Source: Escherichia coli
Lineage (GTDB): Bacteria > Pseudomonadota > Gammaproteobacteria > Enterobacterales > Enterobacteriaceae
Length of the DNA: 64,000 nucleotides
Strand: one strand, 5' to 3'
Assembly: GCF_051903065.1 (NCBI RefSeq)
Contig: NZ_CP178439.1
The position numbers and the translations under genes were made by a program. Positions 32,605 to 51,148 of the stretch are shown here, one piece after another. The notes under the pieces were generated by a model that had not been told where the DNA came from, did no database searches, and saw only the letters and a list, made by a program, of their open reading frames with translations. Numbering within the stretch: the first letter of the stretch is position 1; the number at the start of each line of letters is the position of its first letter.

Positions 32605-32669
32605 ATGAGCACTTCCAAGAACGCAGACAAGTAAGCCGCAGCAACCTTCATTTTTCGGTTGTTGCGGCG
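32605..32669 (+). promoter_or_regulatory. cmlA translational-attenuation leader: 9-codon peptide MSTSKNADK plus inverted-repeat hairpin
   Basis: Leader ORF 32605..32634 then GCCGCAGCAACC...GGTTGTTGCGGC hairpin before the cmlA start. Confidence 0.6.
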
Positions 32670-32732
32670 TTCTCATGAATCCTTTTGCTCTACGGGAGCG
32701 CCGCCAAATCCTTTGTTCAAGGAGATGGTTTC

Positions 32733-33025
32733 GTGCGCTCAAAAAACTTTAGTTGGCGGTACTCCCTTGCCGCCACGGTGTTGTTGTTATCACCGTTCGA
32801 TTTATTGGCATCACTCGGCATGGACATGTACTTGCCAGCAGTGCCGTTTATGCCAAACGCGCTTGGTACGACAGCGAGCACAATTCAGCTTACGCTGACA
32901 ACGTACTTGGTCATGATTGGTGCCGGTCAGCTCTTGTTTGGACCGCTATCGGACCGACTGGGGCGCCGCCCCGTTCTACTGGGAGGTGGCCTCGCCTACG
33001 TTGTGGCGTCAATGGGCCTCGCTCT
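32733..33025 (+). pseudogene. cmlA: Chloramphenicol efflux cmlA (cmlA5-like), 5' fragment, truncated by IS26
   Basis: GTG-start N-terminus RSKNFSWRYSLAATVLLLSPFDLLASLGMDMYLPAVPFMP... stops at the IS26 boundary. Confidence 0.8.
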
Positions 33026-33845
33026 GGCACTGTTGCAAATAGTCGGTGGTGATAAACTTATCATCCCCTTTTGCTGATGGAGCTGCACATGAACCCATTC
33101 AAAGGCCGGCATTTTCAGCGTGACATCATTCTGTGGGCCGTACGCTGGTACTGCAAATACGGCATCAGTTACCGTGAGCTGCAGGAGATGCTGGCTGAAC
33201 GCGGAGTGAATGTCGATCACTCCACGATTTACCGCTGGGTTCAGCGTTATGCGCCTGAAATGGAAAAACGGCTGCGCTGGTACTGGCGTAACCCTTCCGA
33301 TCTTTGCCCGTGGCACATGGATGAAACCTACGTGAAGGTCAATGGCCGCTGGGCGTATCTGTACCGGGCCGTCGACAGCCGGGGCCGCACTGTCGATTTT
33401 TATCTCTCCTCCCGTCGTAACAGCAAAGCTGCATACCGGTTTCTGGGTAAAATCCTCAACAACGTGAAGAAGTGGCAGATCCCGCGATTCATCAACACGG
33501 ATAAAGCGCCCGCCTATGGTCGCGCGCTTGCTCTGCTCAAACGCGAAGGCCGGTGCCCGTCTGACGTTGAACACCGACAGATTAAGTACCGGAACAACGT
33601 GATTGAATGCGATCATGGCAAACTGAAACGGATAATCGGCGCCACGCTGGGATTTAAATCCATGAAGACGGCTTACGCCACCATCAAAGGTATTGAGGTG
33701 ATGCGTGCACTACGCAAAGGCCAGGCCTCAGCATTTTATTATGGTGATCCCCTGGGCGAAATGCGCCTGGTAAGCAGAGTTTTTGAAATGTAAGGCCTTT
33801 GAATAAGACAAAAGGCTGCCTCATCGCTAACTTTGCAACAGTGCC
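33026..33845 (+). mobile_element. tnpA: IS26 copy 5, transposase CDS 33089..33793, Gly at residue 184
   Basis: Both IRs present; flanks do not match. Confidence 0.95.
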
Positions 33846-34086
33846 TTTCACCCTCGATGCCAACCACGTCAGGTGGCAAATTTTCGACATTAACCGCGAC
33901 GATGCTAAATTTCATGGAGAAGTGCGTGGGTGAAATAGCCGGTCGTCAGTCATAAAGGGCAGGGGAGTACCGTTGGCCCGGCGTTCGATAGTACCGTCCG
34001 GATACTGCCAGATATCGGCGTCCAGGGAGATGTCCTGAAGCGCGGTGTCCGGAATTTCAGGTTTGTGTCTCTACAAAGACTAACTA

Positions 34087-34902
34087 TCAGAAAAACTCAT
34101 CGAGCATCAAATGAAACTGCAATTTATTCATATCAGGATTATCAATACCATATTTTTGAAAAAGCCGTTTCTGTAATGAAGGAGAAAATTCACCGAGGCA
34201 GTTCCATAGGATGGCAAGATCCTGGTATCGGTCTGCGATTCCGACTCGTCCAACATCAATACAACCTATTAATTTCCCCTCGTCAAAAATAAGGTTATCA
34301 AGTGAGAAATCACCATGAGTGACGACTGAATCCGGTGAGAATGGCAAAAGCTTATGCATTTCTTTCCAGACTTGTTCAACAGGCCAGCCATTACGCTCGT
34401 CATCAAAATCACTCGCATCAACCAAACCGTTATTCATTCGTGATTGCGCCTGAGCGAGACGAAATACGCGATCGCTGTTAAAAGGACAATTACTAACAGG
34501 AATCGAATGCAACCGGCGCAGGAACGCTGCCAGCGCATCAACAATATTTTCACCTGAATCAGGATATTCTTCTAATACCTGGAATGCTGTTTTCCCGGGG
34601 AGCGCAGTGGTGAGTAACCATGCATCATCAGGAGTACGGATAAAATGCTTGATGGTCGGAAGAGGCATAAATGCCGTCAGCCAGTTTAGTCTGACCATCT
34701 CATCTGTAACATCATTGGCAACGCTACCTTTGCCATGTTTCAGAAACAACTCTGGCGCATCGGGCTTCCCATACAATCGATAGATTGTCGCACCTGATTG
34801 CCCGACATTATCGCGAGCCCATTTATACCCATATAAATCAGCATCCAGGTTGGAATTTAATCGCGGCCTCGAGCAAGACGTTTCCCGTTGAATATGGCTC
34901 AT
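34087..34902 (-). CDS. aph(3')-Ia: Aminoglycoside 3'-phosphotransferase APH(3')-Ia (kanamycin/neomycin resistance)
   Basis: 271-aa protein MSHIQRETSCSRPRLNSNLDADLYGYKWARDNVGQSGATIYRLYGK... Confidence 0.9.
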   Translation of the reverse strand: MSHIQRETSCSRPRLNSNLDADLYGYKWARDNVGQSGATIYRLYGKPDAPELFLKHGKGSVANDVTDEMVRLNWLTAFMPLPTIKHFIRTPDDAWLLTTALPGKTAFQVLEEYPDSGENIVDALAAFLRRLHSIPVSNCPFNSDRVFRLAQAQSRMNNGLVDASDFDDERNGWPVEQVWKEMHKLLPFSPDSVVTHGDFSLDNLIFDEGKLIGCIDVGRVGIADRYQDLAILWNCLGEFSPSLQKRLFQKYGIDNPDMNKLQFHLMLDEFF

Positions 34903-48482: not shown

Positions 48483-50100
48483 GAGTGACGGGCACTGGCT
48501 GGCAATGTCTAGCAACGGCAGGCATTTCGGCTGAGGGTAAAAGAACTTTCCGCTAAGCGATAGACTGTATGTAAACACAGTATTGCAAGGACGCGGAACA
48601 TGCCTCATGTGGCGGCCAGGACGGCCAGCCGGGATCGGGATACTGGTCGTTACCAGAGCCACCGACCCGAGCAAACCCTTCTCTATCAGATCGTTGACGA
48701 GTATTACCCGGCATTCGCTGCGCTTATGGCAGAGCAGGGAAAGGAATTGCCGGGCTATGTGCAACGGGAATTTGAAGAATTTCTCCAATGCGGGCGGCTG
48801 GAGCATGGCTTTCTACGGGTTCGCTGCGAGTCTTGCCACGCCGAGCACCTGGTCGCTTTCAGCTGTAAGCGTCGCGGTTTCTGCCCGAGCTGTGGGGCGC
48901 GGCGGATGGCCGAAAGTGCCGCCTTGCTGGTTGATGAAGTACTGCCTGAACAACCCATGCGTCAGTGGGTGTTGAGCTTCCCGTTTCAGCTGCGTTTCCT
49001 GTTTGCCAGCCGGCCCGAGATCATGGGGTGGGTGCTGGGCATCGTTTACCGCGTCATTGCCACGCACCTGGTCAAGAAAGCGGGCCATACCCACCAAGTG
49101 GCCAAGACGGGCGCGGTCACCCTGATCCAGCGTTTTGGATCGGCGCTCAATCTGAATGTTCACTTCCACATGCTGTTTCTCGACGGTGTGTATGTCGAGC
49201 AATCCCACGGCTCAGCGCGTTTCCGCTGGGTCAAGGCGCCGACCAGCCCAGAGCTCACCCAGCTGACGCACACCATCGCCCACCGGGTGGGTCGCTATCT
49301 GGAACGGCAAGGCCTGCTGGAACGGGATGTCGAAAACAGCTATCTGGCCTCGGATGCGGTGGATGACGACCCGATGACACCCCTGCTGGGGCACTCGATC
49401 ACTTACCGTATCGCTGTCGGTTCACAGGCGGGGCGAAAGGTGTTCACTTTGCAAACTCTGCCGACCAGTGGTGATCCGTTCGGTGACGGGATTGGCAAGG
49501 TAGCCGGGTCCAGCCTGCACGCCGGCGTGGCGGCCAGGGCCGATGAACGCAAGAAGCTCGAACGGCTGTGCCGGTACATCAGCCGCCCGGCGGTATCCGA
49601 GAAGCGGCTGTCGTTAACACGAGGCGGCAACGTGCGCTACCAGCTCAAGACGCCGTACCGGGACGGCACCACGCACGTCATTTTCGAACCATTGGATTTC
49701 ATTGCAAGGCTGGCCGCCCTGGTACCGAAGCCCAGAGTCAACCTAACCCGCTTCCACGGGGTGTTCGCACCCAACAGTCGGCACCGGGCGTTGGTCACGC
49801 CGGCAAAACGGGGCAGGGGCAACAAGGTCAGGGTGGCTGATGAACCGGCAACACCAGCACAACGGCGAGCGTCGATGACATGGGCGCAACGGCTCAAGCG
49901 TGTTTTCAATATCGACATCGAGACCTGCAGCGGCTGCGGCGGCGCCATGAAAGTCATCGCCTGCATTGAAGACCCTATAGTGATCAAGCAGATCCTTGAT
50001 CACCTGAAGCACAAAGCCGAAACCAGCGGGACCAGGGCGTTACCCGAAAGCCGGGCGCCACCGGCTGAGCTGCTCCTGGGTCTGTTTGACTGACGAGCCT
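48483..50100 (+). mobile_element. ISCR2 (IS91-like rolling-circle element), transposase CDS 48600..50093; element boundaries approximate
   Basis: 497-aa IS91-family transposase; a second partial copy of the first ~300 bp at 52767..53072 defines the 5' boundary. Confidence 0.75.
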
Positions 50101-50123
50101 GAAGGCCAACGATACCAATCAAA

Positions 50124-51008
50124 ATGCTGCGTTCACAGCGCCGCGGCAGGGATCCGCCGTGCTGGTTGTCGGAAAAGGAGCCGCTAGTGGGAAAGAGGAG
50201 GGTAAATTTTCAGCGTTGCTGGCTCCCCGTCAGCCGGATTGGGTTGCATCGCAGGGGTGTCGAAAGAGTCAACTGCGGTCCAAAGCTGTTGGACTTGGGT
50301 GAAAAGGGCGTTTATTCTTCCTATACGTGCCGCGTTCCAGGCGGCGACTATGAGGGCTATGTCGATGCCCATGTGCGCCGGCTGGAGGCGCTACGCCGGG
50401 CCGGTATCGTCGAGCGGATCGACGCCGACCAATGGCGCATCCCCAATGATCTGGTCAGCCGTGCCGCCGCCCATGACGCCGGCCGAGACAGTCAGGCCAG
50501 CGTTCGCGTCCTTTCCCCGGTCGATCTGAACAAACAGATCGGATCGGACGGCGCGACCTGGCTGGACCGGCGGCTGATCCACGGCGAGACGGCCGACCTT
50601 GCGCCAACCGGCTTCGGGCAACAAGTCCGCGAAGCCATGGACCAGCGCCGCGAGCACCATATCGAACAGGGCGACGCCACCCGCAGCCGGGACAGCCGCG
50701 TCTTCTACCGGCGCAACCTTCTCGCCATCCTGCGGGAGCGCGAGGTAGCCGGCGTCGGATCGGATATGGCTTTGAGTAAGGGCCTGCCGTTCCGCGCCGC
50801 CACGGACGGCGAGAGCGTCAGCGGCAAGTTTACCGGAACCGTGCATCTATCGAGCGGCAAGTTCGCCGTGGTCGAGAAATCCCATGAGTTCACCCTTGTC
50901 CCGTGGCGGCCGATCATCGACCGCCAACTCGGCCGCGAGGTTATGGGCATCGTGCAGGGCGGGTCGGTGTCGTGGCAGTTAGGGCGGCAGAGGGGGCTGG
51001 AACGCTGA
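50124..51008 (+). pseudogene. Relaxase-like (VirD2-like) fragment commonly found between ISCR2 and floR
   Basis: ORF in the position described for the virD2 relic of floR loci; identity not verified. Confidence 0.35.
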
Positions 51009-51088
51009 GTGCGCCCATGCCGCATTGCGAAGCAAAAGATAATCGGATAAAATGTAGCAATTCATATTCGTAAGCGTGGAGTAATCAG

Positions 51089-51148
51089 ATGGGAAATTCC
51101 AAGTCAGCAGACAAGTAAGCCGCAACAACCAGTATTGTTGTTGCGGCG
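51089..51148 (+). promoter_or_regulatory. floR leader: 9-codon peptide MGNSKSADK plus GCCGCAACAACC...GTTGTTGCGGCG hairpin
   Basis: Read directly; parallels the cmlA leader at 32605..32669. Confidence 0.5.

Follow-up and report, generated by a model that had tools for sequence, protein, structure and literature searches.

Homologous leader peptide and hairpin elements upstream of cmlA and floR, and a probable four-segment attenuator of CmlA/FloR-type exporters

The 64,000-nt stretch of Escherichia coli DNA analysed here (the window) carries two phenicol exporter genes, cmlA and floR, each preceded by a short leader ORF and an inverted repeat, which raises the question of whether this parallel reflects chance or common descent, and of how such an element could control the gene behind it. 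Both leaders, described in a first-pass annotation as ending in ADK, can be read directly from the plus strand as nine codons and a stop: MSTSKNADK at 32605..32634 (ATG at 32605, TAA at 32632-34) and MGNSKSADK at 51089..51118 (ATG at 51089, TAA at 51116-18). The former assignment is based on the sequence, the Ala7-Asp8 context and the KNAD arrest peptide, and the latter on the sequence, a published description (PMC5890775) and family-wide conservation. The inverted repeat noted behind the leaders is likewise present, forming a 12-bp hairpin at cmlA and an 11-bp hairpin at floR, and in both copies the leader stop codon directly adjoins this stem (P1). In cmlA, P1 (segments 1 and 2; 32635..32668, plus strand), recognized from sequence and fold, pairs GCCGCAGCAACC (5′ arm, 32635-46) with GGTTGTTGCGGC (3′ arm, 32657-68) in 12 bp including one G.U (−21.1 kcal/mol, z −6.0). 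In floR, P1 (51119..51147, plus strand) corresponds to IR1/IR2 of Li et al. (2018) and pairs GCCGCAACAAC (51119-29) with GTTGTTGCGGC (51137-47) in 11 bp (−17.7 kcal/mol, z −5.3); over 65 sequences, 100% of cells in this stem are paired, with compensatory changes at two pairs.

The regions upstream of cmlA and floR can be aligned only over the leader and the hairpin core, about 75 nt with 76.9% identity, and these cores match each other reciprocally by blastn in a 7.3-Gb plasmid database. The window contains exactly two copies of a 23-mer, GCAGACAAGTAAGCCGCARCAAC, where none is expected (100 shuffles, even with three mismatches permitted). The shared 23-mer and the reciprocal alignment thus indicate that the parallel is homology, not chance. 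Both copies are widespread: the cmlA leader region is found at ≥99% identity in about 1,100 plasmid records annotated as cmlA1, cmlA5 or cmlA6, and the floR leader region at ≥99% identity in about 2,000 plasmid records, with thousands of plasmids and ICEs matching it at 100%. An Rfam cmscan of the whole window gave no match reaching a family's gathering score at either leader, the matches being AgrB and AAC_AAD_leader (attI1) only.

The description of the downstream genes as two phenicol exporters is correct for floR, which is full length (51225..52439, plus strand; 404 aa; NF000219, 895.9 bits), but not for cmlA, which is cut by IS26. The left inverted repeat of IS26, GGCACTGTTGCAAA, begins at 33026, leaving codons 1-98 of cmlA (32733..33025, plus strand), and the NF000509 profile match is limited to positions 1-100 of 419; accordingly, the window holds no full-length 419-aa CmlA ORF downstream of the attenuator. 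At least 85 plasmid records share this cmlA/IS26 junction. The stump ORF ends 12 nt upstream of the IS26 transposase ATG. With cmlA reduced by the insertion sequence to a non-functional stump of 98 codons, its leader is orphaned, and only the floR copy could regulate a working gene in this window. A more remote possibility is that the orphan leader, reading into IS26, confers chloramphenicol-responsive transcription or translation on the transposase gene.

The intact floR locus begins with a putative promoter-like site on the plus strand, TTGCGA-17-TAAAAT (51025..51053), proposed from a consensus scan and located 5′ of the leader. A Shine-Dalgarno (SD) sequence for the leader, GGAG (51078-81), lies 7 nt 5′ of the leader ATG. 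A lysR-family ORF (52467-52772) is situated immediately 3′ of floR.

The element was found in 80 of 80 GTDB species genomes that encode a FloR relative (61-99% identity), including Rhizobiales, Azospirillum, Sphingomonas, Salinicola, Alcaligenes and Myxococcus. In 77 of the 80 genomes the leader ORF has nine codons and a stop at offset 0 from the stem, the stop codon being lost in the other three, and P1 lies 97-114 nt from the exporter start in 75 of 78 loci. When metagenomes, an independent sample, were scanned by the hairpin sequence alone, the leader was present in 52 of 55 matches, and nearly all leader matches with enough downstream DNA precede a FloR-family gene (49-100% identity). In M. 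xanthus, chloramphenicol induces the CmlA/FloR gene MXAN_2566 more strongly than any other gene (log2FC 5.6), and resistance requires it.

The 49 distinct leader peptides also show synonymous codon changes, a sign that selection acts on the peptide itself. All 49 have Ala, Ser or Thr as residue 7; residue 8 is D, T, E or A, and K, R, E, N, T, I or H stands at residue 9. Gly occurs at residue 8 or 9 in none of them. Chloramphenicol-dependent stalling is favoured by a penultimate Ala, Ser or Thr and counteracted by Gly in the P or A site (PMC9303264), so that the residue 7-9 pattern matches the published context rule, and Ala7-Asp8-Lys9 of both window leaders provides a chloramphenicol-conducive stall context. 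The drug-dependent arrest on the cmlA leader and the drug induction of cmlA and floR are taken from the literature: the CmlA leader (KNAD) is in experimental use as a chloramphenicol-dependent arrest peptide (PMC10192921), and floR mRNA rises 8-fold with florfenicol and is also raised by chloramphenicol (PMC5890775, PMC8256890). The published floR induction concerns the mRNA level, and a transcriptional or Rho-dependent mechanism would give the same result. On the cmlA leader, the stall is predicted with codon 8 (GAC, 32626-28, plus strand) in the P site and codon 9 (AAG) in the A site; for floR, we infer the equivalent stall codon, codon 8 (GAC, 51110-12, plus strand) in the P site.

The notion of drug-dependent stalling and translational attenuation, advanced in the first-pass annotation, therefore gains support from the Ala/Ser/Thr rule, the KNAD arrest and the induction of floR mRNA, but the hairpin it described is only half of a switch. 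P1 itself does not sequester the ribosome-binding site (RBS); a second helix and an alternative pairing are needed too. In cmlA, the predicted RBS sequester (segments 3 and 4; 32696..32740, plus strand; −20.8 kcal/mol) would pair GAGCGCCGCCA with UGG..CG.GCGCUC, and UCCUU with AAGGA, hiding the SD AAGGAG (32719-24) and the GUG start (32733). In floR, the corresponding predicted helix (51178..51227, plus strand; −15.2 kcal/mol) would pair GACGAGCA (51178-85) with UG-A-UUCGUC (51216-24) and CCC (51193-95) with GGG (51212-14), hiding the SD GAGGG (51210-14) and adjoining the AUG at 51225. The sequester of mobile floR alone is not unusually stable (z only −0.9 for the window copy) and is missing one base of the family consensus GAGCGG.

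An alternative, “ON” helix emerges from ribosome-masked folds and is present in the masked MFE structures of both window copies. In cmlA (32664..32704, plus strand; isolated fold −18.3 kcal/mol), GCGGCGUUCUC (32664-74) is predicted to pair with GGGAGCGCCGC (32694-704) over 11 bp, a pairing that cannot coexist with the basal part of either P1 or the RBS sequester. In floR (51143..51193, plus strand; −20.3 kcal/mol), GCGGCG.UCUGU (51143-54) is predicted to pair with GCAGACGUCGC (51183-93). RNAalifold over the family recovers P1 and the SD-sequestering helix with covariation; the sequester consensus is CCGCC..:..GAGCGG, and one of its pairs covaries (AU 30, GC 23, GU 8). The present analysis documents the features of the sequence and how well they are conserved, the ability of both states to pair, and their predicted energies. 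Across 65 sequences, 92.6% of cells are paired in the OFF structure, vs. 32-53% with a slid partner, and 92.0% in the ON helix, vs. 32-55%, although this set consists of related sequences and also served to derive the structures, which means that neither such counts nor the Wilcoxon p-values amount to independent tests. For the ON helix, measures of covariation were not clearly above those of shuffles; its core is almost invariant and therefore leaves little room for covariation.

The energy needed to open a 30-nt RBS footprint, computed over the same 65 sequences, averages 13.5 kcal/mol in the free RNA and 12.9 kcal/mol when a ribosome sits near the start of the leader; placing codon 8 in the P site lowers it to 7.3 kcal/mol, a fall exceeding 1 kcal/mol in 63 of 65. 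Permutation of segment 2 removes this fall (11.7 kcal/mol, 63/65), which indicates that the effect depends on the native segment 2. For the window copies, the cost changes from 8.7 (free) to 5.6 kcal/mol (codon 8 masked) in floR, where the block is weaker than the average, and from 14.4 to 8.0 kcal/mol in cmlA. The equilibrium probability that the SD is unpaired is barely altered by ribosome masking, and a weak local hairpin is still predicted over the SD in the ON state (UCCUU:GAGGG in floR, UCCUU:AAGGA in cmlA). Taken as folding predictions, these values suggest that the OFF structure hides the RBS and that a ribosome at the stall site favours an alternative fold freeing it.

The cmlA and floR elements are most probably homologous copies of a single ancient attenuator that responds to phenicols and controls the translation of CmlA/FloR exporters, operating as a four-segment RNA switch. 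Without drug, the nine-codon leader would be translated and then released; segment 1 (leader codons 7-9, the stop and GCCGCAACAAC) would pair with segment 2 (GUUGUUGCGGCG..CUGU) as P1, and segment 3 (GCAGA..CGCCGCC..) with segment 4 (SD, spacer and start codon). Since the latter pairing would hide the SD and the start, exporter translation would be blocked. With chloramphenicol or florfenicol, a ribosome carrying M-x-x-x-x-S-A-D would arrest once codon 8 occupies the P site; the penultimate residue, Ala, Ser or Thr, would stabilize the bound drug, and the ribosome's mRNA channel would cover the invariant GCCGC base of the hairpin, which begins at +10 from the P-site codon. For the strand-exchange step, we infer that the freed 3′ arm of P1 (GCGGCG..CUGU) would pair with GCAGA..CGCCGC, and that this GCGGCG/CGCCGC pairing would strip the sequester of its 5′ strand and expose the exporter SD and start codon. 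With reasonable likelihood, the element is a single ancient RNA family, absent from Rfam, that governs essentially every CmlA/FloR-type exporter, including chromosomal ones in soil Alphaproteobacteria and Myxococcus, and works by four-segment strand exchange; the invariant GCCGC/GCGGC/GCCGC/GCGG quartet would then reflect the two alternative partners of each segment.

Alternatively, the main effect may be transcriptional, the stalled leader ribosome preventing premature termination within the leader of about 100 nt (either with the second helix as an intrinsic terminator, or by Rho acting on the untranslated leader), with RBS unmasking secondary. The published induction data for floR and MXAN_2566 are all mRNA measurements, as this would predict, although translation-dependent stabilization is also expected to raise mRNA. 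Some relatives do carry a U-rich stretch after the SD-sequestering helix, such as GCGGAAUUUUCUC or GCGGAUGUUUUUCC; however, just 16 of the 65 sequences have at least 5 U in the 8 nt past the second helix, which means that a terminator is not conserved. The second helix always takes in the SD. Furthermore, P1 has no U tract behind it in either window copy, and a terminator scan found no plus-strand terminator in either leader. Mainly transcriptional attenuation is thus unlikely.

On the minus strand, the same terminator scan picks out the floR hairpin as resembling a terminator, which would suit a reading in which the hairpin is an opposite-strand terminator or a stability element and the leader ORF is untranslated. 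Yet the T-rich tail on that strand is simply the reverse complement of the leader codons for D, K and stop, no convergent gene ends at the hairpin, and the synonymous variation, the fixed nine-codon length, the Ala/Ser/Thr rule and the well-spaced SD favour translation, so that this reading is barely credible. It is also very improbable that a protein, be it the LysR-type regulator encoded next to floR or some other, controls floR, with the leader and hairpin incidental: the lysR-family ORF directly 3′ of floR fits such control by its position, but it is a remnant of 101 aa that retains the HTH alone (profile positions ~5-85 of ~300), and incidental sequence would not be expected to keep a leader and hairpin under peptide-level constraints in 80 of 80 genomes.

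In cat-86, pC194 cat and fexA, the stalled ribosome directly melts a single RBS-containing hairpin. These systems (Lovett, 1990; Kehrenberg and Schwarz, 2004) resemble the attenuator proposed here in having a short leader with a drug-dependent stall site, where Asp comes after a penultimate Thr or Ala, and a stem-loop over the RBS. By contrast, the first hairpin of the CmlA/FloR element lies about 65-75 nt from the RBS, and the signal would therefore be relayed by strand exchange; there is also no sequence homology, and the hosts of cat and fexA are Gram-positive. The ermC leader is similar in its four segments, its switch from 1:2/3:4 to 2:3 and the stalled ribosome on segment 1, but differs in responding to a macrolide in the exit tunnel, in its 19-aa leader and in its stall rule, and is not homologous.

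The leader-switch concept for cmlA and floR is already published, textbook knowledge, and both statements of the first-pass annotation to this effect, that the mechanism is known for cmlA and apparently conserved at floR, agree with the literature. The cmlA attenuator dates from Stokes and Hall (1991, Plasmid 26:10) and, as summarized in PMC8876359, comprises two alternative stem-loop pairs upstream of an inducible gene. The element at 32605-32740 is this attenuator, with the nine-residue leader, its own cassette promoter, and the alternative stem-loop pairs, the second of which hides the SD and start; unlike in the published case, the regulated gene in the window ends after codon 98 at IS26. 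The floR element is the putative attenuator of Li et al. (2018, PMC5890775) and of the 2021 floR-variant study (PMC8256890), with an identical 9-aa ORF and the perfect 11-bp IR1/IR2; its conservation at floR was thus on record in 2018. Both papers described a stem-loop lying clear of the floR RBS and did not settle what it does. To that work the present analysis adds, on computational grounds only, a second helix, an alternative GCGGCG/CGCCGC pairing and conservation throughout the family.

In livestock-associated Enterobacteriaceae, few phenicol resistance genes are as common as floR and cmlA, and drug-induced expression through a leader switch bears on the prediction of phenotype from genotype. 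As cmlA in this window is a stump, a resistance caller reporting “cmlA” would be wrong. The conserved relay helix, if true, would answer the question left by the 2018 and 2021 studies of how the gene could be regulated by a hairpin separate from the RBS, and, together with the conservation of the element, it provides a concrete, mutation-testable model of floR regulation.

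The leader ORFs and inverted repeats reported upstream of cmlA and floR in the first-pass annotation lie exactly where they were placed. Both ORFs are on the plus strand, encoding MSTSKNADK* before cmlA (ATG 32605 to TAA 32634) and MGNSKSADK* before floR (ATG 51089 to TAA 51118), and at both loci the inverted repeat starts right after the leader stop codon. The resulting plus-strand hairpin (P1; segments 1 and 2) pairs GCCGCAGCAACC (32635-32646) with GGTTGTTGCGGC (32657-32668) at cmlA, and GCCGCAACAAC (51119-51129) with GTTGTTGCGGC (51137-51147) at floR; folded as isolated RNA, the hairpins reach -21.1 kcal/mol (z -6.0) and -17.7 kcal/mol (z -5.3), respectively. 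The two upstream regions align well only across the leader and the hairpin core, cmlA and floR queries retrieve each other's locus from a 7.3-Gb plasmid database (about 75 nt, 76.9% identity), and the 23-mer common to both loci (GCAGACAAGTAAGCCGCARCAAC) has two copies in the window and none in 100 shuffles with three mismatches tolerated. The resemblance of the two leaders is therefore a matter of homology rather than coincidence.

Drug-induced translational attenuation by ribosome stalling, the mechanism put forward for this arrangement, is supported; it is established for cmlA and has been published as a proposal for floR. The finding as first noted is thus already known, and the present analysis refines a familiar type of system without establishing a new one. 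According to the summary in a review (PMC8876359), Stokes and Hall proposed the cmlA attenuator in 1991; in their model the cassette brings its own promoter and a leader of 9 amino acids, and there are two alternative pairs of stem-loops, one of which conceals the start codon and the SD. The KNAD motif of the CmlA leader has served in experiments as an arrest peptide dependent on chloramphenicol (PMC10192921). For floR, Li et al. (2018; PMC5890775) described the leader element as 100% conserved upstream of the gene in many plasmids and ICEs, cited 8-fold induction by florfenicol and demonstrated by RT-PCR that chloramphenicol is an inducer as well, and a 2021 study made the same leader observation for floR variants, which are induced by both drugs (PMC8256890). 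In both papers it is emphasised that the floR RBS lies outside the stem-loop, and the 2021 paper calls the role of the stem-loop in induction unclear. No Rfam family covers the cmlA/floR leader element, and a full-text literature search for MSTSKNADK, MSTSKNAD and MGNSKSADK gave no match.

Two phenicol exporters had been assumed to follow these leaders; this holds for floR only. The floR gene (51225-52439) is complete, encoding 404 amino acids that match NCBIfam FloR across the full profile (896 bits), and lies in its usual context of an ISCR/IS91-like transposase (48600-50093), a relaxase remnant (50124-51008), floR, a lysR truncated to 101 amino acids (52467-52772) and IS26. By contrast, cmlA is a stump: from its GTG at 32733 only about 98 codons are left, corresponding to positions 1-100 of the 419 in the CmlA profile, and the IS26 left inverted repeat GGCACTGTTGCAAA, which begins at 33026, cuts the gene after codon 98. 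Because of this truncation, the cmlA leader in the window is an orphan regulatory element. In the cassette array, dfrA (31367-31849) and arr (31960-32412) precede the truncated cmlA, after which come IS26, aph(3')-Ia and another IS26. At least 85 plasmid records share the cmlA::IS26 junction, and many of these are Salmonella plasmids about 250-300 kb in size. Taken in full, the window corresponds to resistance regions on E. coli and Klebsiella plasmids of about 270 kb, the best-matching of which is typed IncHI2A/IncN. The stump frame enters IS26 and stops at 33075-33077, 12 nt short of the transposase ATG at 33089, so the cmlA leader may feed both transcription and chloramphenicol-inducible translation into the IS26 transposase gene. 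The integron integrase ORF (30669-31220, minus strand) has only 183 amino acids and a C-terminal part unlike IntI1, so intI1 is probably truncated too. Two Rfam matches at gathering score were also recorded: AAC_AAD_leader at 31310-31382 (plus strand), which is the integron attI1 site upstream of the dfrA cassette, and AgrB at 41399-41486 (minus strand), an antisense RNA of a DinQ-like type I toxin system, at whose position a matching plasmid carries an annotated dqlB toxin gene.

The suggestion that the attenuator is conserved at floR can be extended well beyond the mobile gene: with direct reading included, the element is present in all 80 loci fetched by protein alignment of FloR relatives (61-99% identity to FloR) from 80 species genomes. 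The hosts include Rhizobium, Mesorhizobium, Ensifer, Microvirga, Aminobacter, Azospirillum, Sphingomonas, Salinicola, Alcaligenes and Myxococcus. In 77 loci the leader is exactly nine codons long and its stop touches the first stem base; the remaining three have TAT, CAA or TAC in place of the stop codon. Stem and gene start are 97-114 nt apart in 75 of 78 loci, with 98 nt at cmlA and 106 nt at floR in the window, and one locus (L051) has the element with a variant stem, as seen by direct reading. In the three stop-less loci (L012, about 1864-1893; L014, about 1864-1893; L035, about 1865-1894), from Rhizobium rhizogenes OV677, Pararhodospirillum oryzae and a Rhizobiales isolate, the leader ORF reads on through the hairpin and the rest of the element is intact. 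In three Aminobacter loci (L045, L049 and L057), about 60 nt of additional sequence separate the hairpin from the CGCCGCC block, with hairpin-to-start distances of 165-169 nt versus about 105 nt. When metagenome contigs were selected by the hairpin sequence alone, 52 of the 55 matches carried the leader, the other three being unrelated hairpins, and nearly all leader-bearing matches with enough downstream DNA precede a FloR-family gene (49-100% identity). On one contig (L125, 185-330; Ga0066388_101292656), a leader MSTTIAAAC*, a canonical hairpin and the CGCCGCC block stand before an ORF of the M20 peptidase/amidohydrolase family (Pfam PF01546 and PF07687, matched from profile position 59), not an MFS exporter; this may be a rearranged locus or another gene recruited behind the same sensor. 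On another (L084, 1755-2275), the ORF located at +133 nt behind the leader MGIDATASC* and its hairpin lacks the N-terminal half and matches FloR residues 207-325 only; the contig ends soon after.

The 49 distinct leader peptides are constrained at their C-terminal end. Residue 7 is Ala (36), Ser (12) or Thr (1) and residue 8 is Asp (43), Thr (4), Glu (1) or Ala (1), residue 9 being Lys, Arg, Glu, Asn, Thr, Ile or His; identical peptides are written with different codons, which shows selection on the peptide. This pattern is that of the published chloramphenicol context rule, in which a penultimate Ala, Ser or Thr favours stalling and Gly in the P or A site cancels it (PMC9303264). None of the 49 peptides has Gly at position 8 or 9. 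Applied to these leaders, the rule would have the ribosome arrest when codon 8 occupies the P site and codon 9 the A site. The cmlA inhibitor peptide, in work by Gu et al. in 1994, is reportedly the octamer MSTSKNAD, with which an arrest at codon 8 agrees.

How such an arrest could act on a distant RBS is suggested by an alignment of 65 distinct leader-to-start regions. Beyond the hairpin, two more blocks are strongly conserved, GGCAGA(U)CGCCGCC and GAGCGGAUG, and the RNAalifold consensus contains P1 and a second helix in which CCGCC.. pairs with ..GAGCGG of the SD region (segments 3 and 4). One pair of this helix is AU in 30 sequences, GC in 23 and GU in 8. The 3' arm of P1 and the following bases (GCGGCG..CUGUC; segment 2) are also complementary to GGCAGA..CGCCGC (segment 3). 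The OFF structure (P1 plus the RBS sequester) has 92.6% of cells paired, versus 32-53% with slid partners, and the alternative ON helix (segment 2 with segment 3) 92.0% versus 32-55%; in the upper second helix, counts of about 60-75% understate pairing, the MAFFT register being shifted by one base between clades. None of the 65 sequences departs from the 5 bp that form the foot of P1, as would be expected if GCGGC had to pair with two different GCCGC partners and CCGC had to pair with the GCGG near the SD as well. Segment 3 varies rarely, and then by C to U changes, such as CGUCGC in the window floR, that keep wobble pairing in both states. The ON-helix core is nearly invariant, and covariation therefore cannot prove this helix. 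A pyrimidine-rich AUCCC/UUCC between hairpin and segment 3 (alignment columns 115-119; about 51164-51168 and 32678-32682 in the window) is kept in most relatives and resembles an anti-SD-like sequence. A 15-bp long-range helix predicted in the mobile floR between 51080-51094 (AGUAAUCAGAUGGGA, leader SD and AUG) and 51164-51178 (UCUCAUCUGAUUGCU, 3' of the hairpin) prompted a family-wide test of pairing between leader AUG-GGA and the conserved downstream UCCC(A); at 69% paired, this pairing did not exceed slid or shuffled controls and has no support across the family.

Counted from the first base of a codon 8 in the P site, the stem begins at +10. With about +13 to +16 enclosed by the mRNA channel, a ribosome arrested there would cover just the invariant P1 foot. 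Segment 2 would thereby be freed to pair with segment 3, exchanging 1:2/3:4 for 2:3. With the ribosome footprint masked, the ON helix appears in the predicted minimum-energy folds of both window copies, at 51143-51154:51183-51193 for floR and as an uninterrupted 11 bp at 32664-32674:32694-32704 for cmlA (-18.3 kcal/mol), both on the plus strand. The logic is that of ermC, and the predicted switch matches the "two alternate pairs of stem-loops" of the Stokes and Hall model.

In terms of free energy, opening a 30-nt RBS footprint to a single strand costs on average 13.5 kcal/mol in free RNA, 12.9 kcal/mol with a ribosome early in the leader and 7.3 kcal/mol with codon 8 in the P site, and the cost falls by more than 1 kcal/mol in 63 of the 65 sequences. 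With a permuted segment 2, the stalled state still costs 11.7 kcal/mol, again in 63 of the 65 sequences. In the window, the cost falls from 8.7 to 5.6 kcal/mol for floR (8.8 with segment 2 permuted) and from 14.4 to 8.0 kcal/mol for cmlA (14.4 permuted). This measure replaced the equilibrium unpaired probability of the SD, which rose only from 0.24 to 0.29 on masking; the flanks formed spurious long-range pairs and a weak local hairpin persisted, and a weak 5-bp hairpin is still predicted over the SD in the ON state. The sequester of the mobile floR alone is not unusually stable (z -0.9). All structures and energies are predictions, made on related sequences from which the structures were themselves derived.

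A hairpin after a short ORF might also act as an intrinsic terminator, at P1 or at the second helix. However, P1 is followed by no U tract, a terminator scan found none on the plus strand of either leader, and only 16 of the 65 relatives have a U-rich tail after the second helix; this reading is unlikely and was rejected for both helices. A minus-strand terminator call at the floR hairpin is an artefact of leader codons. Control of floR by the neighbouring LysR is likewise unlikely, because lysR is truncated in the window. Published induction of floR is at the mRNA level, as is that of MXAN_2566, the CmlA/FloR-family gene of M. xanthus that is induced by a log2FC of 5.6 and required for resistance (PMC6617876). 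Such induction could reflect translation-dependent stabilisation of the mRNA and may also include a Rho-dependent component.

To the published attenuator, the present analysis adds the correction that cmlA is a stump, a family-wide leader and a relay mechanism for the point that puzzled earlier authors. The four-segment relay is proposed as a specific and testable way in which a hairpin remote from the RBS may control it. Across the CmlA/FloR family, chromosomal genes of soil bacteria included, the leader itself is universal and constrained at the peptide level.
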